From contig JAUCBJ010009046.1 of NCBI GenBank assembly GCA_032718475.1, positions 1 to 64,000 of the forward strand: a DNA stretch of 64,000 nucleotides, read 5' to 3'. A model generated the notes under the pieces. It made no database searches. It worked only from the letters and a program-made list of their open reading frames with translations, and was not told the origin of the DNA. The translations under genes and the position numbers were made by a program. The DNA is from Nemertoderma westbladi. Lineage: Eukaryota > Animalia > Xenacoelomorpha. Positions 3,223-64,000 of this stretch are shown piece by piece; the first letter of the stretch is position 1; each line of letters opens with the position of its first letter.

Positions 3223-3390
3223 ATTAGCGCGTATAAAATAAAAATTGCAAAGTTAAAATACATTTTAATTAAACATTGAATGATTAAGCTAAATATTCCA
3301 TAACGCACAAATCGTAACGTATGCTATTGTAATATAAGCTATAAGTATTACTGCACCGTTATCATACTCTCTCATATAAATATTATAAAA

Positions 3391-11267: not shown

Positions 11268-11275
11268 GTACTGCG

Positions 11276-29020: not shown

Positions 29021-29161
29021 CGTGGTATAAGGAGTATTTGGACAGCAAGGGTAAAAAAGGTTTTCTTCTATTCCTTTAAATTGAGCTAAATCCCATTCTC
29101 CATTTGTCTGGAAACTTCCCTTTTGGTCTTCCAGTGTTCTGTGCCTAACACTTAAGTTCAC
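29021..29161 (-). CDS. nAChR alpha-type subunit, loop C exon (vicinal cysteines)
   Basis: aatatag | VNLSVRHRTLEDQKGSFQTNGEWDLAQFKGIEENLFYPCCPNTPYTT | gtaagt. 141 nt, phase 0/0. NGEW and YxCC...PY define an alpha subunit. Confidence 0.95.
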
Positions 29162-34343: not shown

Positions 34344-34490
34344 TTACAGTGTTGGTAATCAAACGGATAGTATTGGACGTTGATTTTACAGTAAGTCTCA
34401 AAGAATTCTGGTTTCAGCCACCCAAGATTGCCACTGTGGCTTCCAGTAATATCGGTAAGCCAAATCCCTGGGATTTCCTTATCTGCGGCA
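34307..34490 (-). CDS. nAChR alpha-type subunit, Cys-loop / loop B exon
   Basis: ttctcttcag | (S)AADKEIPGIWLTDITGSHSGNLGWLKPEFFETYCKINVQYYPFDYQHCNITMGPWVYDASK | gtgagt. Cys-x13-Cys loop with YPFD, loop B GPWVYD. 184 nt; phase matches the previous exon (ag+t = Ser). Confidence 0.95.
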
Positions 34491-34938: not shown

Positions 34939-35090
34939 CTGTTGTAGACCATTACATCGGGTCGCCAACAGTCGTTTGGGTCGAACGCTGTATGCGAGAT
35001 ATTAAACTCAGAGAGTTTCCAAGACAACAGTTCATCTGTCCAATATAGCCGATTCCAGACCATAAATTTAACCATTTGGTTTTTTTCATC
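34939..35090 (-). CDS. nAChR alpha-type subunit, first exon visible in window (DEKNQ...loop D...loop A)
   Basis: Manual reverse-complement translation: ttttcag-type acceptor (attatttcag) | DEKNQMVKFMVWNRLYWTDELLSWKLSEFNISHTAFDPNDCWRPDVMVYN(S) | gtagta donor. 152 nt, phase 0 to phase 2. DEKNQ, WxD and WxPDxxxYNS are hallmark nAChR motifs. Not in the ORF track. Confidence 0.93.
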
Positions 35091-35180
35091 CTGAAATAAT
35101 TAGTCCCGCGATGTTATAGAAACAATGTGATTCAGTTAAACTACTTAATAGAGTTAATAATAAGGGCGATGATAAGTTAA

Positions 35181-38100
35181 GTAAGTCGTCCAATAACTTA
35201 CAACATCTGGTACCATCCGTATGTCATACAATCACTTACAACATCTAGTACCATCCGTATGTCATACAATCACTTACAACATCTAGTACCATCCGTAAGT
35301 CATACAATCACTTACAACATCTAGTACCATCCGTAAGTCATACAATCACTTACAACATCTAGTACCATCCGTAAGTCATATACAATCACTTACAACATCT
35401 AGTACCATCCGTAAGTCATACAATCACTTACAACATCTAGTACCATCCGTAAGTCATATACAATCACTTACAACATCTAGTACCATCCGTAAGTCATACA
35501 ATCACTTACAACATCTAGTACCATCCGTAAGTCATATACAATCACTTACAACATCTAGTACCATCCGTAAGTCATATACAATCACTTACAACATCTAGTA
35601 CCATCCGTAAGTCTATACAATCACTTACAACATCTAGTACCATCCGTAAGTCATATACAATCACTTACAACATCTAGTACCATCCGTAAGTCTATACAAT
35701 CACTTACAACATCTAGTACCATCCGTAAGTCATATACAATCACTTACAACATCTAGTACCATCCGTAAGTCTATACAATCACTTACAACATCTAGTACCA
35801 TCCGTAAGTCATATACAATCACTTACAACATCTAGTACCATCCGTATGTCATACAATCACTTACAACATCTAGTACCATCCGTAAGTCATATACAATCAC
35901 TTACAACATCTAGTACCATCCGTATGTCATACAATCACTTACAACATCTAGTACCATCCGTAAGTCATATACAATCACTTACAACATCTAGTACCATCCG
36001 TATGTCATACAATCACTTACAACATCTAGTACCATCCGTAAGTCATATACAATCACTTACAACATCTAGTACCATCCGTATGTCATACAATCACTTACAA
36101 CATCTAGTACCATCCGTAAGTCATACACAATCACTTACAACATCTAGTACCATCCGTATGTCATACAATCACTTACAACATCTAGTACCATCCGTATGTC
36201 ATACAATCACTTACAACATCTAGTACCATCCGTAAGTCATATACAATCACTTACAACATCTAGTACCATCCGTAAGTCACACAATCACTTACAACATCTA
36301 GTACCATCCGTAAGTCATACAATCACTTACAACATCTAGTACCATCCGTATGTCATACAATCACTTACAACATCTAGTACCATCCGTAAGTCATACACAA
36401 TCACTTACAACATCTAGTACCATCCGTATGTCATACAATCACTTACAACATCTAGTACCATCCGTATGTCATACAATCACTTACAACATCTAGTACCATC
36501 CGTAAGTCATATACAATCACTTACAACATCTAGTACCATCCGTAAGTCACACAATCACTTACAACATCTAGTACCATCCGTAAGTCATACAATCACTTAC
36601 AACATCTAGTACCATCCGTAAGTCATACAATCACTTACAACATCTAGTACCATCCGTAAGTCATATACAATCACTTACAACATCTAGTACCATCCGTAAG
36701 TCATATACAATCACTTACAACATCTAGTACCATCCGTAAGTCATATACAATCACTTACAACATCTAGTACCATCCGTAAGTCATATACAATCACTTACAA
36801 CATCTAGTACCATCCGTAAGTCATACAATCACTTACAACATCTAGTACCATCCGTAAGTCATATACAATCACTTACAACATCTAGTACCATCCGTAAGTC
36901 ATACAATCACTTACAACATCTAGTACCATCCGTAAGTCATACAATCACTTACAACATCTAGTACCATCCGTAAGTCATATACAATCACTTACAACATCTA
37001 GTACCATCCGTAAGTCATATACAATCACTTACAACATCTAGTACCATCCGTAAGTCATATACAATCACTTACAACATCTAGTACCATCCGTAAGTCATAT
37101 ACAATCACTTACAACATCTAGTACCATCCGTAAGTCATACAATCACTTACAACATCTAGTACCATCCGTAAGTCATACAATCACTTACAACATCTAGTAC
37201 CATCCGTAAGTCATACAATCACTTACAACATCTAGTACCATCCGTAAGTCATATACAATCACTTACAACATCTAGTACCATCCGTAAGTCATACAATCAC
37301 TTACAACATCTAGTACCATCCGTAAGTCATACAATCACTTACAACATCTAGTACCATCCGTAAGTCATACAATCACTTACAACATCTAGTACCATCCGTA
37401 AGTCATACAATCACTTACAACATCTAGTACCATCCGTAAGTCATACAATCACTTACAACATCTAGTACCATCCGTAAGTCATACAATCACTTACAACATC
37501 TAGTACCATCCGTAAGTCATACAATCACTTACAACATCTAGTACCATCCGTAAGTCATACAATCACTTACAACATCTAGTACCATCCGTAAGTCATACAA
37601 TCACTTACAACATCTAGTACCATCCGTAAGTCATACAATCACTTACAACATCTAGTACCATCCGTAAGTCATACAATCACTTACAACATCTAGTACCATC
37701 CGTAAGTCATACAATCACTTACAACATCTAGTACCATCCGTAAGTCATACAATCACTTACAACATCTAGTACCATCCGTAAGTCATACAATCACTTACAA
37801 CATCTAGTACCATCCGTATGTCATACAATCACTTACAACATCTAGTACCATCCGTAAGTCATATACAATCACTTACAACATCTAGTACCATCCGTAAGTC
37901 ATATACAATCACTTACAACATCTAGTACCATCCGTAAGTCATATACAATCACTTACAACATCTAGTACCATCCGTAAGTCATATACAATCACTTACAACA
38001 TCTAGTACCATCCGTAAGTCATATACAATCACTTACAACATCTAGTACCATCCGTAAGTCATATACAATCACTTACAACATCTAGTACCATCCGTAAGTC

Positions 38101-41100
38101 ATATACAATCACTTACAACATCTAGTACCATCCGTATGTCATACAATCACTTACAACATCTAGTACCATCCGTATGTCATACAATCACTTACAACATCTA
38201 GTACCATCCGTATGTCATACAATCACTTACAACATCTAGTACCATCCGTATGTCATATACAATCACTTACAACATCTAGTACCATCCGTAAGTCGTCATA
38301 CAATCACTTACAACATCTAGTACCATCCGTAAGTCATATACAATCACTTACAACATCTAGTACCATCCGTATGTCATACAATCACTTACAACATCTAGTA
38401 CCATCCGTAAGTCATATACAATCACTTACAACATCTAGTACCATCCGTAAGTCATATACAATCACTTACAACATCTAGTACCATCCGTAAGTCATATACA
38501 ATCACTTACAACATCTAGTACCATCCGTAAGTCATACAATCACTTACAACATCTAGTACCATCCGTATGTCATACAATCACTTACAACATCTAGTACCAT
38601 CCGTATGTCATATACAATCACTTACAACATCTAGTACCATCCGTAAGTCATATACAATCACTTACAACATCTAGTACCATCCGTATGTCATACAATCACT
38701 TACAACATCTAGTACCATCCGTATGTCATATACAATCACTTACAACATCTAGTACCATCCGTATGTCATACAATCACTTACAACATCTAGTACCATCCGT
38801 ATGTCATATACAATCACTTACAACATCTAGTACCATCCGTAAGTCATATACAATCACTTACAACATCTAGTACCATCCGTAAGTCATATACAATCACTTA
38901 CAACATCTAGTACCATCCGTAAGTCATACAATCACTTACAACATCTAGTACCATCCGTAAGTCATACAATCACTTACAACATCTAGTACCATCCGTATGT
39001 CATACAATCACTTACAACATCTAGTACCATCCGTAAGTCATATACAATCACTTACAACATCTAGTACCATCCGTATGTCATATACAATCACTTACAACAT
39101 CTAGTACCATCCGTATGTCATACAATCACTTACAACATCTAGTACCATCCGTAAGTCATACAATCACTTACAACATCTAGTACCATCCGTAAGTCATATA
39201 CAATCACTTACAACATCTAGTACCATCCGTAAGTCATATACAATCACTTACAACATCTAGTACCATCCGTAAGTCATACAATCACTTACAACATCTAGTA
39301 CCATCCGTAAGTCATATACAATCACTTACAACATCTAGTACCATCCGTAAGTCATACAATCACTTACAACATCTAGTACCATCCGTAAGTCATACAATCA
39401 CTTACAACATCTAGTACCATCCGTAAGTCATACAATCACTTACAACATCTAGTACCATCCGTAAGTCATATACAATCACTTACAACATCTAGTACCATCC
39501 GTAAGTCATACAATCACTTACAACATCTAGTACCATCCGTATGTCATACAATCACTTACAACATCTAGTACCATCCGTAAGTCATACAATCACTTACAAC
39601 ATCTAGTACCATCCGTAAGTCATATACAATCACTTACAACATCTAGTACCATCCGTAAGTCATATACAATCACTTACAACATCTAGTACCATCCGTAAGT
39701 CATATACAATCACTTACAACATCTAGTACCATCCGTAAGTCATACAATCACTTACAACATCTAGTACCATCCGTAAGTCATATACAATCACTTACAACAT
39801 CTAGTACCATCCGTAAGTCATACAATCACTTACAACATCTAGTACCATCCGTATGTCATACAATCACTTACAACATCTAGTACCATCCGTAAGTCATACA
39901 ATCACTTACAACATCTAGTACCATCCGTAAGTCATATACAATCACTTACAACATCTAGTACCATCCGTAAGTCATATACAATCACTTACAACATCTAGTA
40001 CCATCCGTAAGTCATATACAATCACTTACAACATCTAGTACCATCCGTAAGTCATACAATCACTTACAACATCTAGTACCATCCGTAAGTCATATACAAT
40101 CACTTACAACATCTAGTACCATCCGTAAGTCATACAATCACTTACAACATCTAGTACCATCCGTATGTCATACAATCACTTACAACATCTAGTACCATCC
40201 GTAAGTCATACAATCACTTACAACATCTAGTACCATCCGTAAGTCATATACAATCACTTACAACATCTAGTACCATCCGTAAGTCATACAATCACTTACA
40301 ACATCTAGTACCATCCGTATGTCATACAATCACTTACAACATCTAGTACCATCCGTATGTCATACAATCACTTACAACATCTAGTACCATCCGTAAGTCA
40401 TACAATCACTTACAACATCTAGTACCATCCGTAAGTCATATACAATCACTTACAACATCTAGTACCATCCGTAAGTCATATACAATCACTTACAACATCT
40501 AGTACCATCCGTAAGTCATATACAATCACTTACAACATCTAGTACCATCCGTAAGTCATACAATCACTTACAACATCTAGTACCATCCGTAAGTCATATA
40601 CAATCACTTACAACATCTAGTACCATCCGTAAGTCATACAATCACTTACAACATCTAGTACCATCCGTATGTCATACAATCACTTACAACATCTAGTACC
40701 ATCCGTAAGTCATACAATCACTTACAACATCTAGTACCATCCGTATGTCATACAATCACTTACAACATCTAGTACCATCCGTATGTCATATACAATCACT
40801 TACAACATCTAGTACCATCCGTAAGTCATACAATCACTTACAACATCTAGTACCATCCGTAAGTCATACAATCACTTACAACATCTAGTACCATCCGTAT
40901 GTCATACAATCACTTACAACATCTAGTACCATCCGTATGTCATATACAATCACTTACAACATCTAGTACCATCCGTATGTCATACAATCACTTACAACAT
41001 CTAGTACCATCCGTATGTCATACAATCACTTACAACATCTAGTACCATCCGTAAGTCATATACAATCACTTACAACATCTAGTACCATCCGTATGTCATA

Positions 41101-44100
41101 CAATCACTTACAACATCTAGTACCATCCGTAAGTCATACAATCACTTACAACATCTAGTACCATCCGTATGTCATACAATCACTTACAACATCTAGTACC
41201 ATCCGTAAGTCATACAATCACTTACAACATCTAGTACCATCCGTAAGTCATATACAATCACTTACAACATCTAGTACCATCCGTAAGTCATATACAATCA
41301 CTTACAACATCTAGTACCATCCGTAAGTCATATACAATCACTTACAACATCTAGTACCATCCGTATGTCATACAATCACTTACAACATCTAGTACCATCC
41401 GTAAGTCATATACAATCACTTACAACATCTAGTACCATCCGTATGTCATACAATCACTTACAACATCTAGTACCATCCGTAAGTCATACAATCACTTACA
41501 ACATCTAGTACCATCCGTAAGTCATACAATCACTTACAACATCTAGTACCATCCGTAAGTCATATACAATCACTTACAACATCTAGTACCATCCGTATGT
41601 CATACAATCACTTACAACATCTAGTACCATCCGTATGTCATACAATCACTTACAACATCTAGTACCATCCGTAAGTCATATACAATCACTTACAACATCT
41701 AGTACCATCCGTATGTCATACAATCACTTACAACATCTAGTACCATCCGTATGTCATACAATCACTTACAACATCTAGTACCATCCGTATGTCATACAAT
41801 CACTTACAACATCTAGTACCATCCGTAAGTCATATACAATCACTTACAACATCTAGTACCATCCGTAAGTCATATACAATCACTTACAACATCTAGTACC
41901 ATCCGTATGTCATACAATCACTTACAACATCTAGTACCATCCGTATGTCATACAATCACTTACAACATCTAGTACCATCCGTAAGTCATATACAATCACT
42001 TACAACATCTAGTACCATCCGTAAGTCATACAATCACTTACAACATCTAGTACCATCCGTAAGTCATACAATCACTTACAACATCTAGTACCATCCGTAA
42101 GTCATATACAATCACTTACAACATCTAGTACCATCCGTAAGTCATACAATCACTTACAACATCTAGTACCATCCGTAAGTCATATACAATCACTTACAAC
42201 ATCTAGTACCATCCGTAAGTCATACAATCACTTACAACATCTAGTACCATCCGTAAGTCATACAATCACTTACAACATCTAGTACCATCCGTATGTCATA
42301 CAATCACTTACAACATCTAGTACCATCCGTATGTCATACAATCACTTACAACATCTAGTACCATCCGTATGTCATACAATCACTTACAACATCTAGTACC
42401 ATCCGTATGTCATACAATCACTTACAACATCTAGTACCATCCGTAAGTCATATACAATCACTTACAACATCTAGTACCATCCGTATGTCATACAATCACT
42501 TACAACATCTAGTACCATCCGTATGTCATACAATCACTTACAACATCTAGTACCATCCGTAAGTCATACAATCACTTACAACATCTAGTACCATCCGTAA
42601 GTCATATACAATCACTTACAACATCTAGTACCATCCGTAAGTCATATACAATCACTTACAACATCTAGTACCATCCGTATGTCATACAATCACTTACAAC
42701 ATCTAGTACCATCCGTATGTCATACAATCACTTACAACATCTAGTACCATCCGTATGTCATACAATCACTTACAACATCTAGTACCATCCGTATGTCATA
42801 TACAATCACTTACAACATCTAGTACCATCCGTAAGTCGGTCATACAATCACTTACAACATCTAGTACCATCCGTAAGTCATATACAATCACTTACAACAT
42901 CTAGTACCATCCGTATGTCATACAATCACTTACAACATCTAGTACCATCCGTAAGTCATATACAATCACTTACAACATCTAGTACCATCCGTAAGTCATA
43001 TACAATCACTTACAACATCTAGTACCATCCGTAAGTCATATACAATCACTTACAACATCTAGTACCATCCGTAAGTCATACAATCACTTACAACATCTAG
43101 TACCATCCGTATGTCATACAATCACTTACAACATCTAGTACCATCCGTATGTCATATACAATCACTTACAACATCTAGTACCATCCGTAAGTCATATACA
43201 ATCACTTACAACATCTAGTACCATCCGTATGTCATACAATCACTTACAACATCTAGTACCATCCGTATGTCATATACAATCACTTACAACATCTAGTACC
43301 ATCCGTATGTCATACAATCACTTACAACATCTAGTACCATCCGTATGTCATATACAATCACTTACAACATCTAGTACCATCCGTAAGTCATATACAATCA
43401 CTTACAACATCTAGTACCATCCGTAAGTCATATACAATCACTTACAACATCTAGTACCATCCGTAAGTCATACAATCACTTACAACATCTAGTACCATCC
43501 GTATGTCATACAATCACTTACAACATCTAGTACCATCCGTATGTCATACAATCACTTACAACATCTAGTACCATCCGTAAGTCATATACAATCACTTACA
43601 ACATCTAGTACCATCCGTATGTCATATACAATCACTTACAACATCTAGTACCATCCGTATGTCATACAATCACTTACAACATCTAGTACCATCCGTAAGT
43701 CATACAATCACTTACAACATCTAGTACCATCCGTAAGTCATATACAATCACTTACAACATCTAGTACCATCCGTAAGTCATATACAATCACTTACAACAT
43801 CTAGTACCATCCGTAAGTCATACAATCACTTACAACATCTAGTACCATCCGTAAGTCATACAATCACTTACAACATCTAGTACCATCCGTAAGTCATACA
43901 ATCACTTACAACATCTAGTACCATCCGTAAGTCATACAATCACTTACAACATCTAGTACCATCCGTATGTCATACAATCACTTACAACATCTAGTACCAT
44001 CCGTATGTCATATACAATCACTTACAACATCTAGTACCATCCGTATGTCATACAATCACTTACAACATCTAGTACCATCCGTATGTCATACAATCACTTA

Positions 44101-47100
44101 CAACATCTAGTACCATCCGTAAGTCATATACAATCACTTACAACATCTAGTACCATCCGTATGTCATACAATCACTTACAACATCTAGTACCATCCGTAA
44201 GTCATACAATCACTTACAACATCTAGTACCATCCGTAAGTCATATACAATCACTTACAACATCTAGTACCATCCGTAAGTCATATACAATCACTTACAAC
44301 ATCTAGTACCATCCGTAAGTCATATACAATCACTTACAACATCTAGTACCATCCGTAAGTCATACAATCACTTACAACATCTAGTACCATCCGTAAGTCA
44401 TATACAATCACTTACAACATCTAGTACCATCCGTATGTCATACAATCACTTACAACATCTAGTACCATCCGTAAGTCATATACAATCACTTACAACATCT
44501 AGTACCATCCGTAAGTCATACAATCACTTACAACATCTAGTACCATCCGTAAGTCATATACAATCACTTACAACATCTAGTACCATCCGTATGTCATACA
44601 ATCACTTACAACATCTAGTACCATCCGTATGTCATACAATCACTTACAACATCTAGTACCATCCGTAAGTCATATACAATCACTTACAACATCTAGTACC
44701 ATCCGTATGTCATACAATCACTTACAACATCTAGTACCATCCGTATGTCATACAATCACTTACAACATCTAGTACCATCCGTATGTCATACAATCACTTA
44801 CAACATCTAGTACCATCCGTAAGTCATACAATCACTTACAACATCTAGTACCATCCGTAAGTCATATACAATCACTTACAACATCTAGTACCATCCGTAA
44901 GTCATACAATCACTTACAACATCTAGTACCATCCGTAAGTCATATACAATCACTTACAACATCTAGTACCATCCGTAAGTCATACAATCACTTACAACAT
45001 CTAGTACCATCCGTAGTCATACAATCACTTACAACATCTAGTACCATCCGTATGTCATACAATCACTTACAACATCTAGTACCATCCGTATGTCATACAA
45101 TCACTTACAACATCTAGTACCATCCGTAAGTCATATACAATCACTTACAACATCTAGTACCATCCGTAAGTCATACAATCACTTACAACATCTAGTACCA
45201 TCCGTAAGTCATACAATCACTTACAACATCTAGTACCATCCGTAAGTCATACAATCACTTACAACATCTAGTACCATCCGTAAGTCATATACAATCACTT
45301 ACAACATCTAGTACCATCCGTATGTCATACACAATCACTTACAACATCTAGTACCATCCGTATGTCATACAATCACTTACAACATCTAGTACCATCCGTA
45401 AGTCATACAATCACTTACAACATCTAGTACCATCCGTAAGTCATATACAATCACTTACAACATCTAGTACCATCCGTAAGTCATATACAATCACTTACAA
45501 CATCTAGTACCATCCGTAAGTCATATACAATCACTTACAACATCTAGTACCATCCGTAAGTCATATACAATCACTTACAACATCTAGTACCATCCGTAAG
45601 TCATATACAATCACTTACAACATCTAGTACCATCCGTAAGTCATATACAATCACTTACAACATCTAGTACCATCCGTAAGTCATATACAATCACTTACAA
45701 CATCTAGTACCATCCGTAAGTCATATACAATCACTTACAACATCTAGTACCATCCGTAAGTCATATACAATCACTTACAACATCTAGTACCATCCGTAAG
45801 TCATACAATCACTTACAACATCTAGTACCATCCGTAAGTCATACAATCACTTACAACATCTAGTACCATCCGTAAGTCATATACAATCACTTACAACATC
45901 TAGTACCATCCGTAAGTCACACAATCACTTACAACATCTAGTACCATCCGTAAGTCATACAATCACTTACAACATCTAGTACCATCCGTATGTCATACAA
46001 TCACTTACAACATCTAGTACCATCCGTATGTCATACAATCACTTACAACATCTAGTACCATCCGTAAGTCATATACAATCACTTACAACATCTAGTACCA
46101 TCCGTAAGTCATATACAATCACTTACAACATCTAGTACCATCCGTAAGTCATACAATCACTTACAACATCTAGTACCATCCGTAAGTCATATACAATCAC
46201 TTACAACATCTAGTACCATCCGTATGTCACACAATCACTTACAACATCTAGTACCATCCGTAAGTCATATACAATCACTTACAACATCTAGTACCATCCG
46301 TAAGTCATATACAATCACTTACAACATCTAGTACCATCCGTATGTCACACAATCACTTACAACATCTAGTACCATCCGTAAGTCATATACAATCACTTAC
46401 AACATCTAGTACCATCCGTATGTCACACAATCACTTACAACATCTAGTACCATCCGTATGTCACACAATCACTTACAACATCTAGTACCATCCGTATGTC
46501 ACACAATCACTTACAACATCTAGTACCATCCGTATGTCATACAATCACTTACAACATCTAGTACCATCCGTATGTCACACAATCACTTACAACATCTAGT
46601 ACCATCCGTAAGTCATATACAATCACTTACAACATCTAGTACCATCCGTATGTCACACAATCACTTACAACATCTAGTACCATCCGTATGTCATACAATC
46701 ACTTACAACATCTAGTACCATCCGTAAGTCATACAATCACTTACAACATCTAGTACCATCCGTATGTCATACAATCACTTACAACATCTAGTACCATCCG
46801 TATGTCATACAATCACTTACAACATCTAGTACCATCCGTAAGTCATACAATCACTTACAACATCTAGTACCATCCGTATGTCATACAATCACTTACAACA
46901 TCTAGTACCATCCGTAAGTCATACAATCACTTACAACATCTAGTACCATCCGTAAGTCATATACAATCACTTACAACATCTAGTACCATCCGTAAGTCAC
47001 ACAATCACTTACAACATCTAGTACCATCCGTATGTCATACAATCACTTACAACATCTAGTACCATCCGTAAGTCATACAATCACTTACAACATCTAGTAC

Positions 47101-50100
47101 CATCCGTAAGTCACACAATCACTTACAACATCTAGTACCATCCGTAAGTCATATACAATCACTTACAACATCTAGTACCATCCGTATGTCATACAATCAC
47201 TTACAACATCTAGTACCATCCGTATGTCATACAATCACTTACAACATCTAGTACCATCCGTAAGTCATATACAATCACTTACAACATCTAGTACCATCCG
47301 TAAGTCATATACAATCACTTACAACATCTAGTACCATCCGTAAGTCATATACAATCACTTACAACATCTAGTACCATCCGTAAGTCATATACAATCACTT
47401 ACAACATCTAGTACCATCCGTAAGTCATATACAATCACTTACAACATCTAGTACCATCCGTAAGTCATATACAATCACTTACAACATCTAGTACCATCCG
47501 TAAGTCATATACAATCACTTACAACATCTAGTACCATCCGTAAGTCATATACAATCACTTACAACATCTAGTACCATCCGTAAGTCATATACAATCACTT
47601 ACAACATCTAGTACCATCCGTATGTCATACAATCACTTACAACATCTAGTACCATCCGTAAGTCATATACAATCACTTACAACATCTAGTACCATCCGTA
47701 AGTCATATACAATCACTTACAACATCTAGTACCATCCGTATGTCATACAATCACTTACAACATCTAGTACCATCCGTATGTCATATACAATCACTTACAA
47801 CATCTAGTACCATCCGTATGTCATACAATCACTTACAACATCTAGTACCATCCGTATGTCATACAATCACTTACAACATCTAGTACCATCCGTATGTCAT
47901 ACAATCACTTACAACATCTAGTACCATCCGTATGTCATACAATCACTTACAACATCTAGTACCATCCGTAAGTCATATACAATCACTTACAACATCTAGT
48001 ACCATCCGTATGTCATACAATCACTTACAACATCTAGTACCATCCGTATGTCATACAATCACTTACAACATCTAGTACCATCCGTATGTCATACAATCAC
48101 TTACAACATCTAGTACCATCCGTATGTCATACAATCACTTACAACATCTAGTACCATCCGTATGTCATACAATCACTTACAACATCTAGTACCATCCGTA
48201 AGTCATATACAATCACTTACAACATCTAGTACCATCCGTATGTCATACAATCACTTACAACATCTAGTACCATCCGTATGTCATATACAATCACTTACAA
48301 CATCTAGTACCATCCGTATGTCATACAATCACTTACAACATCTAGTACCATCCGTAAGTCATACAATCACTTACAACATCTAGTACCATCCGTAAGTCAT
48401 ATACAATCACTTACAACATCTAGTACCATCCGTAAGTCATATACAATCACTTACAACATCTAGTACCATCCGTATGTCATACAATCACTTACAACATCTA
48501 GTACCATCCGTAAGTCATATACAATCACTTACAACATCTAGTACCATCCGTAAGTCATATACAATCACTTACAACATCTAGTACCATCCGTAAGTCATAC
48601 AATCACTTACAACATCTAGTACCATCCGTAAGTCATACAATCACTTACAACATCTAGTACCATCCGTAAGTCATACAATCACTTACAACATCTAGTACCA
48701 TCCGTAAGTCATACAATCACTTACAACATCTAGTACCATCCGTATGTCATACAATCACTTACAACATCTAGTACCATCCGTATGTCATACAATCACTTAC
48801 AACATCTAGTACCATCCGTATGTCATATACAATCACTTACAACATCTAGTACCATCCGTATGTCATACAATCACTTACAACATCTAGTACCATCCGTATG
48901 TCATACAATCACTTACAACATCTAGTACCATCCGTATGTCATACAATCACTTACAACATCTAGTACCATCCGTATGTCATACAATCACTTACAACATCTA
49001 GTACCATCCGTAAGTCATATACAATCACTTACAACATCTAGTACCATCCGTATGTCATACAATCACTTACAACATCTAGTACCATCCGTATGTCATACAA
49101 TCACTTACAACATCTAGTACCATCCGTATGTCATACAATCACTTACAACATCTAGTACCATCCGTATGTCATACAATCACTTACAACATCTAGTACCATC
49201 CGTATGTCATATACAATCACTTACAACATCTAGTACCATCCGTATGTCATACAATCACTTACAACATCTAGTACCATCCGTATGTCATACAATCACTTAC
49301 AACATCTAGTACCATCCGTATGTCATACAATCACTTACAACATCTAGTACCATCCGTATGTCATACAATCACTTACAACATCTAGTACCATCCGTAAGTC
49401 ATATACAATCACTTACAACATCTAGTACCATCCGTATGTCATACAATCACTTACAACATCTAGTACCATCCGTATGTCATACAATCACTTACAACATCTA
49501 GTACCATCCGTATGTCATACAATCACTTACAACATCTAGTACCATCCGTATGTCATACAATCACTTACAACATCTAGTACCATCCGTATGTCATATACAA
49601 TCACTTACAACATCTAGTACCATCCGTATGTCATACAATCACTTACAACATCTAGTACCATCCGTATGTCATACAATCACTTACAACATCTAGTACCATC
49701 CGTAAGTCATATACAATCACTTACAACATCTAGTACCATCCGTAAGTCATACAATCACTTACAACATCTAGTACCATCCGTAAGTCATACAATCACTTAC
49801 AACATCTAGTACCATCCGTATGTCATACAATCACTTACAACATCTAGTACCATCCGTAAGTCATACAATCACTTACAACATCTAGTACCATCCGTATGTC
49901 ATACAATCACTTACAACATCTAGTACCATCCGTATGTCATACAATCACTTACAACATCTAGTACCATCCGTATGTCATATACAATCACTTACAACATCTA
50001 GTACCATCCGTATGTCATACAATCACTTACAACATCTAGTACCATCCGTATGTCATACAATCACTTACAACATCTAGTACCATCCGTATGTCATATACAA

Positions 50101-53100
50101 TCACTTACAACATCTAGTACCATCCGTATGTCATACAATCACTTACAACATCTAGTACCATCCGTATGTCATACAATCACTTACAACATCTAGTACCATC
50201 CGTATGTCATATACAATCACTTACAACATCTAGTACCATCCGTATGTCATACAATCACTTACAACATCTAGTACCATCCGTATGTCATACAATCACTTAC
50301 AACATCTAGTACCATCCGTAAGTCATATACAATCACTTACAACATCTAGTACCATCCGTAAGTCATACAATCACTTACAACATCTAGTACCATCCGTATG
50401 TCATACAATCACTTACAACATCTAGTACCATCCGTAAGTCATACAATCACTTACAACATCTAGTACCATCCGTATGTCATACAATCACTTACAACATCTA
50501 GTACCATCCGTATGTCATACAATCACTTACAACATCTAGTACCATCCGTATGTCATATACAATCACTTACAACATCTAGTACCATCCGTATGTCATACAA
50601 TCACTTACAACATCTAGTACCATCCGTATGTCATACAATCACTTACAACATCTAGTACCATCCGTAAGTCATATACAATCACTTACAACATCTAGTACCA
50701 TCCGTAAGTCATACAATCACTTACAACATCTAGTACCATCCGTAAGTCATATACAATCACTTACAACATCTAGTACCATCCGTAAGTCATACAATCACTT
50801 ACAACATCTAGTACCATCCGTAAGTCATACAATCACTTACAACATCTAGTACCATCCGTAAGTCATATACAATCACTTACAACATCTAGTACCATCCGTA
50901 AGTCATACAATCACTTACAACATCTAGTACCATCCGTATGTCATACAATCACTTACAACATCTAGTACCATCCGTATGTCATACAATCACTTACAACATC
51001 TAGTACCATCCGTATGTCATACAATCACTTACAACATCTAGTACCATCCGTAAGTCATACAATCACTTACAACATCTAGTACCATCCGTAAGTCATACAA
51101 TCACTTACAACATCTAGTACCATCCGTATGTCATACAATCACTTACAACATCTAGTACCATCCGTATGTCATACAATCACTTACAACATCTAGTACCATC
51201 CGTAAGTCATATACAATCACTTACAACATCTAGTACCATCCGTAAGTCATACAATCACTTACAACATCTAGTACCATCCGTAAGTCATACAATCACTTAC
51301 AACATCTAGTACCATCCGTAAGTCATACAATCACTTACAACATCTAGTACCATCCGTAAGTCATATACAATCACTTACAACATCTAGTACCATCCGTATG
51401 TCATACACAATCACTTACAACATCTAGTACCATCCGTATGTCATACAATCACTTACAACATCTAGTACCATCCGTAAGTCATACAATCACTTACAACATC
51501 TAGTACCATCCGTAAGTCATATACAATCACTTACAACATCTAGTACCATCCGTAAGTCATATACAATCACTTACAACATCTAGTACCATCCGTAAGTCAT
51601 ATACAATCACTTACAACATCTAGTACCATCCGTAAGTCATATACAATCACTTACAACATCTAGTACCATCCGTAAGTCATATACAATCACTTACAACATC
51701 TAGTACCATCCGTAAGTCATATACAATCACTTACAACATCTAGTACCATCCGTAAGTCATATACAATCACTTACAACATCTAGTACCATCCGTAAGTCAT
51801 ATACAATCACTTACAACATCTAGTACCATCCGTAAGTCATATACAATCACTTACAACATCTAGTACCATCCGTAAGTCACACAATCACTTACAACATCTA
51901 GTACCATCCGTAAGTCATACAATCACTTACAACATCTAGTACCATCCGTAAGTCATATACAATCACTTACAACATCTAGTACCATCCGTAAGTCATACAA
52001 TCACTTACAACATCTAGTACCATCCGTAAGTCATACAATCACTTACAACATCTAGTACCATCCGTATGTCATACAATCACTTACAACATCTAGTACCATC
52101 CGTATGTCATACAATCACTTACAACATCTAGTACCATCCGTAAGTCATATACAATCACTTACAACATCTAGTACCATCCGTAAGTCATATACAATCACTT
52201 ACAACATCTAGTACCATCCGTAAGTCATACAATCACTTACAACATCTAGTACCATCCGTAAGTCATATACAATCACTTACAACATCTAGTACCATCCGTA
52301 TGTCACACAATCACTTACAACATCTAGTACCATCCGTAAGTCATATACAATCACTTACAACATCTAGTACCATCCGTAAGTCATATACAATCACTTACAA
52401 CATCTAGTACCATCCGTATGTCACACAATCACTTACAACATCTAGTACCATCCGTAAGTCATATACAATCACTTACAACATCTAGTACCATCCGTATGTC
52501 ACACAATCACTTACAACATCTAGTACCATCCGTATGTCACACAATCACTTACAACATCTAGTACCATCCGTATGTCACACAATCACTTACAACATCTAGT
52601 ACCATCCGTATGTCATACAATCACTTACAACATCTAGTACCATCCGTATGTCACACAATCACTTACAACATCTAGTACCATCCGTAAGTCATATACAATC
52701 ACTTACAACATCTAGTACCATCCGTATGTCACACAATCACTTACAACATCTAGTACCATCCGTATGTCATACAATCACTTACAACATCTAGTACCATCCG
52801 TAAGTCATACAATCACTTACAACATCTAGTACCATCCGTATGTCATACAATCACTTACAACATCTAGTACCATCCGTATGTCATACAATCACTTACAACA
52901 TCTAGTACCATCCGTAAGTCATACAATCACTTACAACATCTAGTACCATCCGTATGTCATACAATCACTNNNNNNNNNNNNNNNNNNNNNNNNNNNNNNN
53001 NNNNNNNNNNNNNNNNNNNNNNNNNNNNNNNNNNNNNNNNNNNNNNNNNNNNNNNNNNNNNNNNNNNNNCAATCACTTACAACATCTAGTACCATCCGTA

Positions 53101-56100
53101 TGTCATACAATCACTTACAACATCTAGTACCATCCGTAAGTCATACAATCACTTACAACATCTAGTACCATCCGTAAGTCATACAATCACTTACAACATC
53201 TAGTACCATCCGTATGTCATACAATCACTTACAACATCTAGTACCATCCGTAAGTCATACAATCACTTACAACATCTAGTACCATCCGTATGTCATACAA
53301 TCACTTACAACATCTAGTACCATCCGTATGTCATACAATCACTTACAACATCTAGTACCATCCGTAAGTCATATACAATCACTTACAACATCTAGTACCA
53401 TCCGTAAGTCATATACAATCACTTACAACATCTAGTACCATCCGTAAGTCATATACAATCACTTACAACATCTAGTACCATCCGTAAGTCATACAATCAC
53501 TTACAACATCTAGTACCATCCGTATGTCATACAATCACTTACAACATCTAGTACCATCCGTAAGTCATATACAATCACTTACAACATCTAGTACCATCCG
53601 TAAGTCATACAATCACTTACAACATCTAGTACCATCCGTAAGTCATACAATCACTTACAACATCTAGTACCATCCGTAAGTCATACAATCACTTACAACA
53701 TCTAGTACCATCCGTAAGTCATACAATCACTTACAACATCTAGTACCATCCGTAAGTCATACAATCACTTACAACATCTAGTACCATCCGTAAGTCATAT
53801 ACAATCACTTACAACATCTAGTACCATCCGTAAGTCATATACAATCACTTACAACATCTAGTACCATCCGTATGTCATACAATCACTTACAACATCTAGT
53901 ACCATCCGTAAGTCATATACAATCACTTACAACATCTAGTACCATCCGTATGTCATACAATCACTTACAACATCTAGTACCATCCGTAAGTCATATACAA
54001 TCACTTACAACATCTAGTACCATCCGTAAGTCATATACAATCACTTACAACATCTAGTACCATCCGTAAGTCATACAATCACTTACAACATCTAGTACCA
54101 TCCGTAAGTCATACAATCACTTACAACATCTAGTACCATCCGTAAGTCATACAATCACTTACAACATCTAGTACCATCCGTAAGTCATATCAATCACTTA
54201 CAACATCTAGTACCATCCGTAAGTCATATACAATCACTTACAACATCTAGTACCATCCGTAAGTCATATACAATCACTTACAACATCTAGTACCATCCGT
54301 AAGTCATATACAATCACTTACAACATCTAGTACCATCCGTAAGTCATACAATCACTTACAACATCTAGTACCATCCGTAAGTCATACAATCACTTACAAC
54401 ATCTAGTACCATCCGTAAGTCATACAATCACTTACAACATCTAGTACCATCCGTAAGTCATATACAATCACTTACAACATCTAGTACCATCCGTAAGTCA
54501 TACAATCACTTACAACATCTAGTACCATCCGTAAGTCATACAATCACTTACAACATCTAGTACCATCCGTATGTCATACAATCACTTACAACATCTAGTA
54601 CCATCCGTAAGTCATACAATCACTTACAACATCTAGTACCATCCGTAAGTCATACAATCACTTACAACATCTAGTACCATCCGTAAGTCATACAATCACT
54701 TACAACATCTAGTACCATCCGTAAGTCATACAATCACTTACAACATCTAGTACCATCCGTATGTCATACAATCACTTACAACATCTAGTACCATCCGTAA
54801 GTCATACAATCACTTACAACATCTAGTACCATCCGTAAGTCATATACAATCACTTACAACATCTAGTACCATCCGTAAGTCATATACAATCACTTACAAC
54901 ATCTAGTACCATCCGTAAGTCATATACAATCACTTACAACATCTAGTACCATCCGTAAGTCATACAATCACTTACAACATCTAGTACCATCCGTAAGTCA
55001 TATACAATCACTTACAACATCTAGTACCATCCGTAAGTCATACAATCACTTACAACATCTAGTACCATCCGTAAGTCATATACAATCACTTACAACATCT
55101 AGTACCATCCGTAAGTCATATACAATCACTTACAACATCTAGTACCATCCGTAAGTCATACAATCACTTACAACATCTAGTACCATCCGTAAGTCATACA
55201 ATCACTTACAACATCTAGTACCATCCGTAAGTCATACAATCACTTACAACATCTAGTACCATCCGTAAGTCATATACAATCACTTACAACATCTAGTACC
55301 ATCCGTAAGTCATATACAATCACTTACAACATCTAGTACCATCCGTAAGTCATACAATCACTTACAACATCTAGTACCATCCGTAAGTCATACAATCACT
55401 TACAACATCTAGTACCATCCGTAAGTCATATACAATCACTTACAACATCTAGTACCATCCGTAAGTCATACAATCACTTACAACATCTAGTACCATCCGT
55501 AAGTCATATACAATCACTTACAACATCTAGTACCATCCGTAAGTCATATACAATCACTTACAACATCTAGTACCATCCGTAAGTCATACAATCACTTACA
55601 ACATCTAGTACCATCCGTAAGTCATATACAATCACTTACAACATCTAGTACCATCCGTAAGTCATACAATCACTTACAACATCTAGTACCATCCGTAAGT
55701 CATATACAATCACTTACAACATCTAGTACCATCCGTAAGTCATACAATCACTTACAACATCTAGTACCATCCGTAAGTCATACAATCACTTACAACATCT
55801 AGTACCATCCGTAAGTCATACAATCACTTACAACATCTAGTACCATCCGTAAGTCATACAATCACTTACAACATCTAGTACCATCCGTAAGTCATATACA
55901 ATCACTTACAACATCTAGTACCATCCGTAAGTCATACAATCACTTACAACATCTAGTACCATCCGTAAGTCATATACAATCACTTACAACATCTAGTACC
56001 ATCCGTAAGTCATATACAATCACTTACAACATCTAGTACCATCCGTAAGTCATATACAATCACTTACAACATCTAGTACCATCCGTAAGTCATACAATCA

Positions 56101-59100
56101 CTTACAACATCTAGTACCATCCGTATGTCATACAATCACTTACAACATCTAGTACCATCCGTAAGTCATATACAATCACTTACAACATCTAGTACCATCC
56201 GTAAGTCATACAATCACTTACAACATCTAGTACCATCCGTAAGTCATATACAATCACTTACAACATCTAGTACCATCCGTAAGTCATATACAATCACTTA
56301 CAACATCTAGTACCATCCGTAAGTCATATACAATCACTTACAACATCTAGTACCATCCGTAAGTCATATACAATCACTTACAACATCTAGTACCATCCGT
56401 AAGTCATATACAATCACTTACAACATCTAGTACCATCCGTAAGTCATATACAATCACTTACAACATCTAGTACCATCCGTAAGTCATATACAATCACTTA
56501 CAACATCTAGTACCATCCGTATGTCATACAATCACTTACAACATCTAGTACCATCCGTAAGTCATATACAATCACTTACAACATCTAGTACCATCCGTAA
56601 GTCATATACAATCACTTACAACATCTAGTACCATCCGTATGTCATACAATCACTTACAACATCTAGTACCATCCGTAAGTCATATACAATCACTTACAAC
56701 ATCTAGTACCATCCGTATGTCATACAATCACTTACAACATCTAGTACCATCCGTAAGTCATACAATCACTTACAACATCTAGTACCATCCGTATGTCATA
56801 CAATCACTTACAACATCTAGTACCATCCGTAAGTCATATACAATCACTTACAACATCTAGTACCATCCGTAAGTCATATACAATCACTTACAACATCTAG
56901 TACCATCCGTAAGTCATACAATCACTTACAACATCTAGTACCATCCGTATGTCATACAATCACTTACAACATCTAGTACCATCCGTAAGTCATACAATCA
57001 CTTACAACATCTAGTACCATCCGTAAGTCATACAATCACTTACAACATCTAGTACCATCCGTAAGTCATATACAATCACTTACAACATCTAGTACCATCC
57101 GTAAGTCATATACAATCACTTACAACATCTAGTACCATCCGTAAGTCATATACAATCACTTACAACATCTAGTACCATCCGTAAGTCATACAATCACTTA
57201 CAACATCTAGTACCATCCGTAAGTCATATACAATCACTTACAACATCTAGTACCATCCGTATGTCATACAATCACTTACAACATCTAGTACCATCCGTAA
57301 GTCATATACAATCACTTACAACATCTAGTACCATCCGTAAGTCATATACAATCACTTACAACATCTAGTACCATCCGTATGTCATACAATCACTTACAAC
57401 ATCTAGTACCATCCGTAAGTCATACAATCACTTACAACATCTAGTACCATCCGTAAGTCATACAATCACTTACAACATCTAGTACCATCCGTAAGTCATA
57501 TACAATCACTTACAACATCTAGTACCATCCGTAAGTCATATACAATCACTTACAACATCTAGTACCATCCGTAAGTCATACAATCACTTACAACATCTAG
57601 TACCATCCGTAAGTCATATACAATCACTTACAACATCTAGTACCATCCGTATGTCATACAATCACTTACAACATCTAGTACCATCCGTAAGTCATATACA
57701 ATCACTTACAACATCTAGTACCATCCGTATGTCATACAATCACTTACAACATCTAGTACCATCCGTAAGTCATATACAATCACTTACAACATCTAGTACC
57801 ATCCGTAAGTCATATACAATCACTTACAACATCTAGTACCATCCGTAAGTCATACAATCACTTACAACATCTAGTACCATCCGTAAGTCATACAATCACT
57901 TACAACATCTAGTACCATCCGTATGTCATACAATCACTTACAACATCTAGTACCATCCGTAAGTCATATACAATCACTTACAACATCTAGTACCATCCGT
58001 AAGTCATATACAATCACTTACAACATCTAGTACCATCCGTAAGTCATACAATCACTTACAACATCTAGTACCATCCGTAAGTCATATACAATCACTTACA
58101 ACATCTAGTACCATCCGTAAGTCATACAATCACTTACAACATCTAGTACCATCCGTAAGTCATACAATCACTTACAACATCTAGTACCATCCGTAAGTCA
58201 TATACAATCACTTACAACATCTAGTACCATCCGTAAGTCATACAATCACTTACAACATCTAGTACCATCCGTAAGTCATATACAATCACTTACAACATCT
58301 AGTACCATCCGTAAGTCATATACAATCACTTACAACATCTAGTACCATCCGTAAGTCATACAATCACTTACAACATCTAGTACCATCCGTAAGTCATATA
58401 CAATCACTTACAACATCTAGTACCATCCGTAAGTCATACAATCACTTACAACATCTAGTACCATCCGTAAGTCATATACAATCACTTACAACATCTAGTA
58501 CCATCCGTAAGTCATATACAATCACTTACAACATCTAGTACCATCCGTAAGTCATATACAATCACTTACAACATCTAGTACCATCCGTAAGTCATACAAT
58601 CACTTACAACATCTAGTACCATCCGTATGTCATACAATCACTTACAACATCTAGTACCATCCGTAAGTCATATACAATCACTTACAACATCTAGTACCAT
58701 CCGTAAGTCATACAATCACTTACAACATCTAGTACCATCCGTAAGTCATATACAATCACTTACAACATCTAGTACCATCCGTAAGTCATACAATCACTTA
58801 CAACATCTAGTACCATCCGTAAGTCATATACAATCACTTACAACATCTAGTACCATCCGTAAGTCGTCATACAATCACTTACAACATCTAGTACCATCCG
58901 TATGTCATACAATCACTTACAACATCTAGTACCATCCGTAAGTCATATACAATCACTTACAACATCTAGTACCATCCGTAAGTCATATACAATCACTTAC
59001 AACATCTAGTACCATCCGTAAGTCATACAATCACTTACAACATCTAGTACCATCCGTATGTCATATACAATCACTTACAACATCTAGTACCATCCGTAAG

Positions 59101-62100
59101 TCATACAATCACTTACAACATCTAGTACCATCCGTAAGTCATATACAATCACTTACAACATCTAGTACCATCCGTAAGTCATATACAATCACTTACAACA
59201 TCTAGTACCATCCGTATGTCATATACAATCACTTACAACATCTAGTACCATCCGTAAGTCATACAATCACTTACAACATCTAGTACCATCCGTAAGTCAT
59301 ATACAATCACTTACAACATCTAGTACCATCCGTAAGTCATACAATCACTTACAACATCTAGTACCATCCGTAAGTCATATACAATCACTTACAACATCTA
59401 GTACCATCCGTAAGTCATATACAATCACTTACAACATCTAGTACCATCCGTAAGTCATATACAATCACTTACAACATCTAGTACCATCCGTAAGTCATAC
59501 AATCACTTACAACATCTAGTACCATCCGTAAGTCATATACAATCACTTACAACATCTAGTACCATCCGTAAGTCGTCATACAATCACTTACAACATCTAG
59601 TACCATCCGTAAGTCATATACAATCACTTACAACATCTAGTACCATCCGTAAGTCATACAATCACTTACAACATCTAGTACCATCCGTAAGTCATATACA
59701 ATCACTTACAACATCTAGTACCATCCGTAAGTCATACAATCACTTACAACATCTAGTACCATCCGTATGTCATATACAATCACTTACAACATCTAGTACC
59801 ATCCGTAAGTCATATACAATCACTTACAACATCTAGTACCATCCGTAAGTCATATACAATCACTTACAACATCTAGTACCATCCGTAAGTCGGTCATACA
59901 ATCACTTACAACATCTAGTACCATCCGTATGTCATATACAATCACTTACAACATCTAGTACCATCCGTAAGTCGTCATACAATCACTTACAACATCTAGT
60001 ACCATCCGTATGTCATATACAATCACTTACAACATCTAGTACCATCCGTAAGTCGTCATACAATCACTTACAACATCTAGTACCATCCGTAAGTCATATA
60101 CAATCACTTACAACATCTAGTACCATCCGTAAGTCATACAATCACTTACAACATCTAGTACCATCCGTAAGTCATATACAATCACTTACAACATCTAGTA
60201 CCATCCGTAAGTCATACAATCACTTACAACATCTAGTACCATCCGTATGTCATATACAATCACTTACAACATCTAGTACCATCCGTAAGTCATATACAAT
60301 CACTTACAACATCTAGTACCATCCGTAAGTCATATACAATCACTTACAACATCTAGTACCATCCGTAAGTCATACAATCACTTACAACATCTAGTACCAT
60401 CCGTAAGTCATATACAATCACTTACAACATCTAGTACCATCCGTAAGTCATATACAATCACTTACAACATCTAGTACCATCCGTAAGTCATACAATCACT
60501 TACAACATCTAGTACCATCCGTAAGTCATACAATCACTTACAACATCTAGTACCATCCGTAAGTCATACAATCACTTACAACATCTAGTACCATCCGTAA
60601 GTCATACAATCACTTACAACATCTAGTACCATCCGTAAGTCATACAATCACTTACAACATCTAGTACCATCCGTAAGTCATATACAATCACTTACAACAT
60701 CTAGTACCATCCGTAAGTCATATACAATCACTTACAACATCTAGTACCATCCGTAAGTCATACAATCACTTACAACATCTAGTACCATCCGTAAGTCATA
60801 TACAATCACTTACAACATCTAGTACCATCCGTAAGTCATATACAATCACTTACAACATCTAGTACCATCCGTAAGTCATATACAATCACTTACAACATCT
60901 AGTACCATCCGTAAGTCATATACAATCACTTACAACATCTAGTACCATCCGTATGTCATATACAATCACTTACAACATCTAGTACCATCCGTAAGTCATA
61001 TACAATCACTTACAACATCTAGTACCATCCGTATGTCATATACAATCACTTACAACATCTAGTACCATCCGTAAGTCATATACAATCACTTACAACATCT
61101 AGTACCATCCGTAAGTCATATACAATCACTTACAACATCTAGTACCATCCGTATGTCATATACAATCACTTACAACATCTAGTACCATCCGTAAGTCATA
61201 TACAATCACTTACAACATCTAGTACCATCCGTAAGTCATACAATCACTTACAACATCTAGTACCATCCGTAAGTCATATACAATCACTTACAACATCTAG
61301 TACCATCCGTAAGTCATATACAATCACTTACAACATCTAGTACCATCCGTAAGTCATACAATCACTTACAACATCTAGTACCATCCGTATGTCATATACA
61401 ATCACTTACAACATCTAGTACCATCCGTATGTCATATACAATCACTTACAACATCTAGTACCATCCGTAAGTCATATACAATCACTTACAACATCTAGTA
61501 CCATCCGTATGTCATATACAATCACTTACAACATCTAGTACCATCCGTAAGTCATATACAATCACTTACAACATCTAGTACCATCCGTATGTCATATACA
61601 ATCACTTACAACATCTAGTACCATCCGTAAGTCATACAATCACTTACAACATCTAGTACCATCCGTAAGTCATATACAATCACTTACAACATCTAGTACC
61701 ATCCGTAAGTCATACAATCACTTACAACATCTAGTACCATCCGTAAGTCATATACAATCACTTACAACATCTAGTACCATCCGTAAGTCATACAATCACT
61801 TACAACATCTAGTACCATCCGTATGTCATATACAATCACTTACAACATCTAGTACCATCCGTATGTCATATACAATCACTTACAACATCTAGTACCATCC
61901 GTAAGTCATATACAATCACTTACAACATCTAGTACCATCCGTATGTCATATACAATCACTTACAACATCTAGTACCATCCGTAAGTCATATACAATCACT
62001 TACAACATCTAGTACCATCCGTATGTCATATACAATCACTTACAACATCTAGTACCATCCGTAAGTCATACAATCACTTACAACATCTAGTACCATCCGT

Positions 62101-64000
62101 AAGTCATATACAATCACTTACAACATCTAGTACCATCCGTAAGTCATACAATCACTTACAACATCTAGTACCATCCGTAAGTCATATACAATCACTTACA
62201 ACATCTAGTACCATCCGTAAGTCATACAATCACTTACAACATCTAGTACCATCCGTAAGTCATATACAATCACTTACAACATCTAGTACCATCCGTAAGT
62301 CATATACAATCACTTACAACATCTAGTACCATCCGTAAGTCATACAATCACTTACAACATCTAGTACCATCCGTAAGTCATACAATCACTTACAACATCT
62401 AGTACCATCCGTAAGTCATACAATCACTTACAACATCTAGTACCATCCGTAAGTCATACAATCACTTACAACATTTAGTACCATCCGTAAGTCATACAAT
62501 CACTTACAACATCTAGTACCATCCGTAAGTCATATACAATCACTTACAACATCTAGTACCATCCGTAAGTCATATACAATCACTTACAACATCTAGTACC
62601 ATCCGTAAGTCATACAATCACTTACAACATCTAGTACCATCCGTAAGTCATATACAATCACTTACAACATCTAGTACCATCCGTAAGTCATACAATCACT
62701 TACAACATCTAGTACCATCCGTAAGTCATACAATCACTTACAACATCTAGTACCATCCGTAAGTCATATACAATCACTTACAACATCTAGTACCATCCGT
62801 AAGTCATATACAATCACTTACAACATCTAGTACCATCCGTAAGTCATACAATCACTTACAACATCTAGTACCATCCGTAAGTCATATACAATCACTTACA
62901 ACATCTAGTACCATCCGTAAGTCATACAATCACTTACAACATCTAGTACCATCCGTATGTCATATACAATCACTTACAACATCTAGTACCATCCGTAAGT
63001 CATATACAATCACTTACAACATTTAGTACCATCCGTAAGTCATATACAATCACTTACAACATCTAGTACCATCCGTAAGTCATATACAATCACTTACAAC
63101 ATCTAGTACCATCCGTAAGTCATATACAATCACTTACAACATCTAGTACCATCCGTAAGTCATATACAATCACTTACAACATCTAGTACCATCCGTAAGT
63201 CACACAATCACTTACAACATCTAGTACCATCCGTAAGTCATATACAATCACTTACAACATCTAGTACCATCCGTAAGTCATACAATCACTTACAACATCT
63301 AGTACCATCCGTAAGTCATACAATCACTTACAACATCTAGTACCATCCGTAAGTCACACAATCACTTACAACATCTAGTACCATCCGTAAGTCATATACA
63401 ATCACTTACAACATCTAGTACCATCCGTAAGTCATACAATCACTTACAACATCTAGTACCATCCGTAAGTCATACAATCACTTACAACATCTAGTACCAT
63501 CCGTAAGTCATATACAATCACTTACAACATCTAGTACCATCCGTAAGTCATACAATCACTTACAACATCTAGTACCATCCGTAAGTCATATACAATCACT
63601 TACAACATCTAGTACCATCCGTAAGTCATATACAATCACTTACAACATCTAGTACCATCCGTAAGTCATATACAATCACTTACAACATCTAGTACCATCC
63701 GTAAGTCATATACAATCACTTACAACATCTAGTACCATCCGTAAGTCATATACAATCACTTACAACATCTAGTACCATCCGTATTTCATACAATCACTTA
63801 CAACATCTAGTACCATCCGTAAGTCATATACAATCACTTACAACATCTAGTACCATCCGTATTTCATACAATCACTTACAACATCTAGTACCATCCGTAA
63901 GTCATATACAATCACTTACAACATCTAGTACCATCCGTAAGTCATATACAATCACTTACAACATCTAGTACCATCCGTATTTCATACAATCACTTACAAC
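35181..64000. repeat. Giant 38/40-bp tandem array in the nAChR intron; unit resembles exon end plus GTAAGT donor on the sense strand
   Basis: Plus-strand unit caatcacttacaacatctagtaccatccgta(a/t)gtcata(ta). About 740 copies by length; runs off the right edge and spans a gap. Confidence 0.98.
52970..53069. other. Assembly gap (100 N) inside the giant array
   Basis: Exactly 100 N, typical of a placeholder of unknown size. The repeat has the same orientation on both sides. Confidence 0.99.

Follow-up and report, generated by a model that had tools for sequence, protein, structure and literature searches.

In human F7, intron 7 carries a 37-bp variable number tandem repeat (VNTR) whose first unit spans the exon-intron boundary, and the splice donor is reiterated within the intron (PMC1557585). 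The accessible part of that report lists 25 such pseudo-sites or copies in the interferon-inducible gene 6-16, 15-20 in intron 13 of CBS, 10-15 in LMNB2 and 16-18 in intron 4 of PDGF. Splicing is described there as using the upstream donor only in F7, LMNB2 and PDGF, and the upstream donor plus two pseudo-sites in 6-16 and CBS. In amphioxus, "mirage" minisatellites have been described from Adh3, the globins BflGb6/BflGb9, TnC and PGBD5 together with normal splicing (available text of PMC3087553 and PMC3902484), and internal tandem repeats of variable number occur at human exon-intron boundaries (sections consulted of PMC2812944). Long repeat-filled transcription units form a further group: the fertility genes of the Drosophila Y chromosome have satellite-filled introns of hundreds of kb to Mb (portions consulted of PMC11207136 and PMC6508613), and the non-coding chicken repeat RNA LL2R, built of 446-bp units, is rich in predicted donors (available part of bioRxiv 10.64898/2026.03.19.712899).

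We analyzed a stretch of 64,000 nucleotides from Nemertoderma westbladi (contig JAUCBJ010009046.1), called the window below, which holds six minus-strand exons of an acetylcholine receptor gene and, upstream of them on the same strand, a large array of 38- and 40-bp units. We put the probability at about 0.8 that this array derives from the last eight codons of the preceding exon and the first bases of its intron by tandem amplification. The arrangement itself has already been described; what is new is the scale, since the cases in the texts available to us have no more than 25 copies and this array has about 740.

The six exons join into 428 open codons, beginning with DEKNQ, and a stop. They comprise exon b (34939..35090), which opens with DEKNQ and encodes part of the ligand-binding domain; exon c (34307..34490) with the Cys loop; exon d (29021..29161) with loop C and the vicinal cysteines YPCC; exon e (28666..28888) with transmembrane region; exon f (22315..22519) with transmembrane region and the beginning of the intracellular loop; and exon g (12833..13214) with the last transmembrane helix and the stop. 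All five visible introns are GT-AG, with lengths of 448, 5145, 132, 6146 and 9100 bp. Pfam Neur_chan_LBD or Neur_chan_memb scored above cut-off in exons b, c, e, f and g, the five exons scanned. Since the model has both a Cys loop (C-x13-C at residue 85) and YPCC (at residue 149), the gene is, judged by its sequence, a divergent alpha-type subunit of the nicotinic acetylcholine receptor with an open frame. Its named relatives are alpha7-, alpha9- and alpha10-like, with best blastp identities of 29-40% for the gene model. Protein searches gave 86 hits for exon b (best identity 48%), no hit from one candidate for exon c, and 40 hits from 154 candidates for exon e (best identity 70%); no protein of the same species was among the database hits for these three exons. 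A quick tree placed the gene on a long branch (1.78) in an unresolved group of 36 rows (SH-aLRT 82) and in no subfamily. Judging by aligned relatives, a signal peptide and about 40 residues of the mature protein precede DEKNQ; here they would lie outside the window.

The large array occupies 35181..64000 and runs past the window end; TRF reports a period of 38, 740.6 copies and 96% matches. Splitting the minus strand at GTAAGT yields 738 donors; the 737 units between successive donors fall into 18 types, with 396 units of 38 bp and 328 of 40 bp (724 of the 737), 12 of 37-42 bp and one that spans a gap. Each unit consists of 24 nt encoding DLRMVLDV (511 of the 736 gap-free units) or DIRMVLDV (218 of 736), followed by 14-16 nt that begin with the donor. 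The sequence-only reading had included a tyrosine codon before this octapeptide in the exon copy; that codon belongs to the stretch in which units differ in length, and it probably does not come from the exon. That reading had also called the donor a consensus one. This holds for GTAAGT, which is retained in every gap-free unit, and fails on the exon side, where the bases are GTT; measured against the donor consensus, it matches 6 of 11 positions, against 7-8 of 11 at the five visible donors of the gene.

Several other parts of the sequence-only reading were borne out on renewed measurement. The next exon does open with DEKNQ, and the last donor of the array, a variant copy at 35201, is followed by a remnant of 111 bp (35091..35201) up to the acceptor AG ending at 35091. 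The first 21 nt of this remnant form a partial, diverged unit carrying GACTTAC, with which the exon-like part of the unit begins as well. The statement that reading past a donor meets TAG in 38-bp units and TGA in 40-bp units before the next donor is right for 729 of 736 gap-free units; the remaining seven are free of in-frame stops.

For the main question, whether the unit copies the end of the missing upstream exon, the eight codons before the donor were scored against the eight family columns before DEKNQ in three profiles. With a narrow profile of 22 unique rows, the unit peptide reached only 1.1 bits, with the donor register the best of 76-80 in all six main unit types. As high a score was obtained by 635 of 200,000 shuffles and at 136 of 70,308 window positions, the unit peptide fell under all 22 family rows, and one unrelated array reached up to 2.4 bits in some register. 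A profile of 60 unique rows, drawn from the 86 hits after leaving out 16 whose alignment began beyond query position 2 and three too near the N-terminus, gave 10.5 bits, with the next register at 1.7 or less and the donor register best in all four main types tested. Only 14 of 200,000 shuffles reached this score, as did one of 70,300 non-array window positions and none of 96 positions preceding GTRAG, and the unit equalled or exceeded 34 of the 60 leave-one-out rows. In 14 of these 60 rows a Q directly precedes the DEKNQ-like motif, and in most of them the sequence further upstream is unrelated. These rows weaken the profile; they hint at gene calls running through the acceptor CAG and at a phase-0 intron before DEKNQ that may be widespread. 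A third profile was built from 44 full-length proteins, which left 37 unique rows once five long-branch rows had been dropped; it gave 6.7 bits, a score matched by 52 of 200,000 shuffles. Under this profile 61 of 153 true 8-mers of the gene itself score no higher than the unit peptide, a score that is ordinary for this divergent gene. Vertebrate alpha7 and alpha9 genes carry a phase-0 intron before a DEKNQ-like motif, and, judged indirectly by the 14 rows with Q, the intron position before DEKNQ appears to be shared with other genomes.

An origin from the exon-donor junction, as the sequence-only reading had proposed, is thus well if indirectly supported by the peptide and its register, and some observations count against it. 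Five positions before DEKNQ the unit has M, where the family has Q in 21 of 22 rows of the narrow profile, in 30 of 60 of the second and in 32 of 37 of the third. Relatives with the motif L-R-Q-(I/V)-L-D-(V/L) exist (P0067, P0088 and P0089), and one relative (P0112) has M at this position. The weak exon side of the donor and the scaffold gap described below, which leaves the join unproven, also speak against an exon-end origin. A competing reading is an unrelated intronic satellite with a chance likeness to an exon end, its GTAAGT forming one half of an inverted repeat within the unit. The unit does contain an inverted repeat, and T-type units show GTAAGT on both strands. GTRAGT appears on one strand in 20,563 of 300,000 shuffles of the whole unit and is by itself weak evidence of an exon-end origin; the low score under the narrow profile and the Q-to-M mismatch fit such a satellite as well, and so does the generally repeat-prone character of the region, where tandem repeats, the majority without relation to exons, make up about 61% of positions 1-35180. 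Donor and peptide together, by contrast, were recovered in only five of 300,000 shuffles, and the array lies on the strand, in the register and at the position that an exon-end origin requires. With a visible analogue of the proposed process in the same gene, we regard a chance satellite as improbable.

This analogue is a 44-bp array at 33379..34342 on the minus strand, with 22 copies of the end of exon c and a GTGAGT donor. Its first copy is coding: the last 36 nt of exon c form its first unit, visible and in frame. Among the 21 downstream copies, 17 keep AAG/GTRAGT (the slash marks the splice site), and splicing from the donor of any later copy would end the reading frame at codon 128 of the gene model. 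Judged by its structure, the 44-bp array belongs fully to the donor-spanning minisatellites, and it shows directly, within the same gene, the process that we propose for the large array. The sequence-only reading did not mention it. In read data, the depth steps up exactly at 34342/34343 in three of three runs (from 21 to 424, from 29 to 227 and from 6 to 487), and the unique contigs stop at 34313. A third array begins close to a donor: 388 copies of a 23-bp unit (13420..22312, minus strand) start 2 nt past the donor of exon f, occupy 8.9 kb of the 9.1-kb intron and end in a donor-like CAG/GTAGGT. It contains no exon bases and is ruled out as a copy of an exon end.

Arrays thus open three of the gene's six introns, one of the three being inferred. 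Within the visible gene, two of six arrays begin 40 nt or less from a donor (P about 0.02, a post hoc value), and several arrays that have no donor have expanded in the gene too. In this genome, splice donors might be hotspots at which tandem arrays start and from which introns grow to gigantic size, with the large array possibly acting as a sink for U1, a doubtful idea that we rate well below the exon-end origin itself.

The sequence-only reading had put the large array at more than 28.8 kb and about 740 copies. The donor count and the TRF estimate agree with this copy number, and the length depends on a scaffold join, since a gap of 100 N (52970..53069), overlooked in that reading, lies inside the array and divides it into 458 donors (17.8 kb) contiguous with the gene and 280 donors beyond. 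The intron upstream of exon b is accordingly at least 17.9 kb long in contiguous sequence and about 29 kb as assembled, scaffold join included. The claimed inflation of a 0.1-kb intron by more than 250-fold becomes about 160-fold for the contiguous part; 260-fold needs both the scaffold join and an exon at the array end. Long blocks of the unit-type string repeat kilobases apart within the array, as expected from unequal exchange.

These features invite the suspicion that the array is an assembly artefact, as the scaffold sequence is gapped and the recurring blocks could be partly mis-assembled. Read data speak otherwise. Three of six runs (X1, X2 and X3), from two samples that are possibly the source of this DNA, contain the unique flank, and in all three the words of the large-array unit are hundreds of times deeper than this flank. 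In X1 the flank contig has a depth of 21 and unit contigs have depths of 2,800-12,143, and the jump is similar in X2 and X3. Two 31-letter core contigs in X1 (12,000 and 3,700) together amount to about 750 times the flank depth, an order-of-magnitude figure only, which is roughly compatible with a single locus. If these two contigs correspond to two variants, the T:A ratio is 76:24 in X1, close to the 70:30 counted in the window. Contig depth is a poor measure of copy number, two runs of one sample giving about 8-fold and about 78-fold at the exon c array; rough as it is, the depth of the large array points to tens of kb. The array was not invented by the assembly, and we consider an artefact extremely improbable. 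Contigs matching exon b and the last two units in X1-X3 had no loose end into an upstream exon among the records listed, and X5 had no contig matching exon b and the last two units. This blank carries no information, because the same method did not recover the far flank of the 44-bp array either, although that flank is known.

A different concern is that the unit does stem from this gene's exon end while the array is now detached from it: the 5' end of the gene may have been cut off or silenced, the exon may since have changed, or the scaffold may join the gene to a different block. The gap within the array and a window that contains no upstream exon are compatible with this, as are the last unit and the remnant, which deviate from the amplified consensus at several bases. 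The visible part of the gene speaks against it, with 428 open codons over six exons, five GT-AG introns and both the Cys loop and the vicinal cysteines preserved; unit types A-D, moreover, occur before and beyond the gap without a change of orientation. We regard a detached array as unlikely, if less so than a chance satellite.

Under the exon-end origin, the diverged last unit would preserve a trace of the founding event. Its GACTTAC is likely the microhomology of the first duplication, in which GACTTAC in the exon end would have slipped against GACTTAC about 14 nt into the intron and produced the first duplicate. Slippage and unequal exchange would then have expanded and homogenised the array. 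We predict that its far end is the real upstream exon and that splicing proceeds via the first, most upstream donor, as in human F7, with the remaining copies being silent intron. Transcripts with premature stops are removed by nonsense-mediated decay, and use of a later copy is predicted to add such a stop and to expose the transcript to this decay. In its effect on the gene the array would then be neutral filler that lengthened a 0.1-kb intron at least 160-fold.

The array may also have had this origin and yet be maintained or adjusted by selection. A nascent RNA with about 51 donors in every 2 kb could recruit U1 snRNPs in large numbers and thereby retard or dampen expression of the receptor. 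That no gap-free unit has lost GTAAGT agrees with this, and splicing factors accumulate on chicken LL2R RNA, for which more than five donors per 2 kb are predicted (available part of bioRxiv 10.64898/2026.03.19.712899); the donor density of the large array is about ten times that of LL2R. Since the units are almost invariant throughout, however, donor retention is uninformative as a test of selection, and we dropped purging of donors as a test for the same lack of power. The weak exon side of the donor does not suggest a strong U1 target, and by prediction most of the donor is base-paired (0.81-0.95; the exon c donor has 0.64; values computed without a shuffle control); masking of the donors by hairpins was set aside as evidence. 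Expansion of donor-less arrays in the same gene calls for no donor-based advantage, and the described cases, in the texts available, splice normally or use the first few copies only. Selection for U1 binding is very unlikely on this evidence, and neutral growth from the exon end remains our preferred reading.

Its unit size and the donor reiterated in the intron liken the large array to the F7-type VNTRs; a head-to-tail unit of tens of bases and a reiterated intronic donor suggest that it likely behaves as a donor-spanning minisatellite. It differs from them in having about 740 copies rather than 5-25 and in a unit with about 24 putative exon bases, where the F7 unit has four. In the F7-type genes, moreover, the first unit and its splicing were observed, whereas for the large array both are predicted. 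Mirage minisatellites share with the arrays described here the tandem copying of exon-intron boundaries, the invertebrate host, the occurrence at several loci in one lineage, units in the range of 10-160 bp and edge units that escape homogenisation. According to the available text of PMC3087553 and PMC3902484, mirages duplicate both 5' and 3' boundaries, in contrast to the donor-side arrays found here, the BflGb6 mirage has 3-6 copies, and arrays on the kilobase scale are not described.

The human boundary repeats are reported, in the part of PMC2812944 consulted, to give rise within duplicated genes to new introns or to splicing alternatives, whereas here the intron seems older than the array; the large-array unit also has no AG directly before GT. 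Intron gain by tandem duplication of AG/GT (the Rogers model, as cited in PMC3087553) does not fit the large array, since the intron position is apparently shared and the unit reads GTT/GT. Tandem repeats form long transcribed stretches in the gigantic Drosophila Y introns and in LL2R, which resemble the present intron in this respect. The Drosophila introns, at hundreds of kb to Mb, exceed the assembled length of the intron here, and no derivation from a host exon end is described for either in the sections of the sources consulted. Among the papers listed by searches of open PMC and bioRxiv, no title or abstract opening reports a donor-spanning array with hundreds of copies.

For genome annotation, arrays of this kind matter as they break assemblies and conceal 5' exons. 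If the proposed origin is true, the large array represents one route by which an intron of 0.1 kb can grow to tens of kb. If donors do act as hotspots, about 740 U1-binding sites would be loaded on a single nascent RNA, and with an intact gene behind it the array would put first-donor selection to a stronger natural test than any before. Should the far end of the array prove to be a real exon and the mRNA normal, the spliceosome would be selecting one of about 740 near-identical donors over at least 18 kb, and the rule that the upstream donor is used, for which F7 has provided tests with 5-9 copies according to the available text, would be extended by about two orders of magnitude.

The gene for the nicotinic acetylcholine receptor alpha-type subunit lies in a region rich in tandem repeats, with ten arrays of periods 6-46 covering about 61% of window positions 1-35180. 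Three of these, with units of 41, 27 and 46 bp, adjoin one another and occupy 3396-12655, beyond the stop codon on the downstream side of the gene. A LINE-like element was also detected in the e-f intron on the gene's own strand (24297-27168, minus strand); it is frameshifted, with its endonuclease (PF03372) and reverse transcriptase (PF00078) each in a different frame.

The unit of the 44-bp array (33379-34342, minus strand) consists of the end of exon c and its donor, and the donor is gone from 4 of the 21 later copies. The two junction variants of this array look like alternative 3-nt deletions of exon sequence where units join. The intron between exons f and g is almost entirely occupied by 388 copies of a 23-bp unit (13420-22312, minus strand), beginning 2 nt past the exon f donor. 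Most of these units terminate in CAG/GT, and the last bases of the array, CAG/GTAGGT, lie about 200 nt ahead of the intron acceptor and are nearer to the donor consensus than the real donor of exon f.

Within the large array of donor-containing units (35181-64000, minus strand), long strings of unit types at about 52900-51100 and 47100-45200 repeat each other several kilobases apart, with further recurrence at about 43000 and 38900. One recurring string begins at the scaffold gap; these strings could reflect either local mis-assembly or duplication of whole blocks. GTAAGT and its reverse complement ACTTAC are spaced 9-11 nt apart, both in T-type units and in the remnant intron, and could possibly form a hairpin covering the donor. 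Folding of the units predicts pairing at this site, a prediction with no control set beside it.

At the near edge of the array, the unique contig of sample S2 reaches 35194 while that of sample S1 reaches 35239 (window 35191-35239), so the edge may differ between the two samples. At 35111, within the remnant intron, S2 also shows a single-base difference from the window. Among the 60 unique rows obtained from exon b matches, 14 (such as P0073, P0101 and P0115) carry Q immediately before the DEKNQ-like motif; these database proteins look like gene calls running through an intron acceptor. At the far end (60900-64000, minus strand), the 38-bp A-type unit is absent from the first 74 units and Leu-type units predominate; the real upstream exon is therefore predicted to end in DLRMVLDV.
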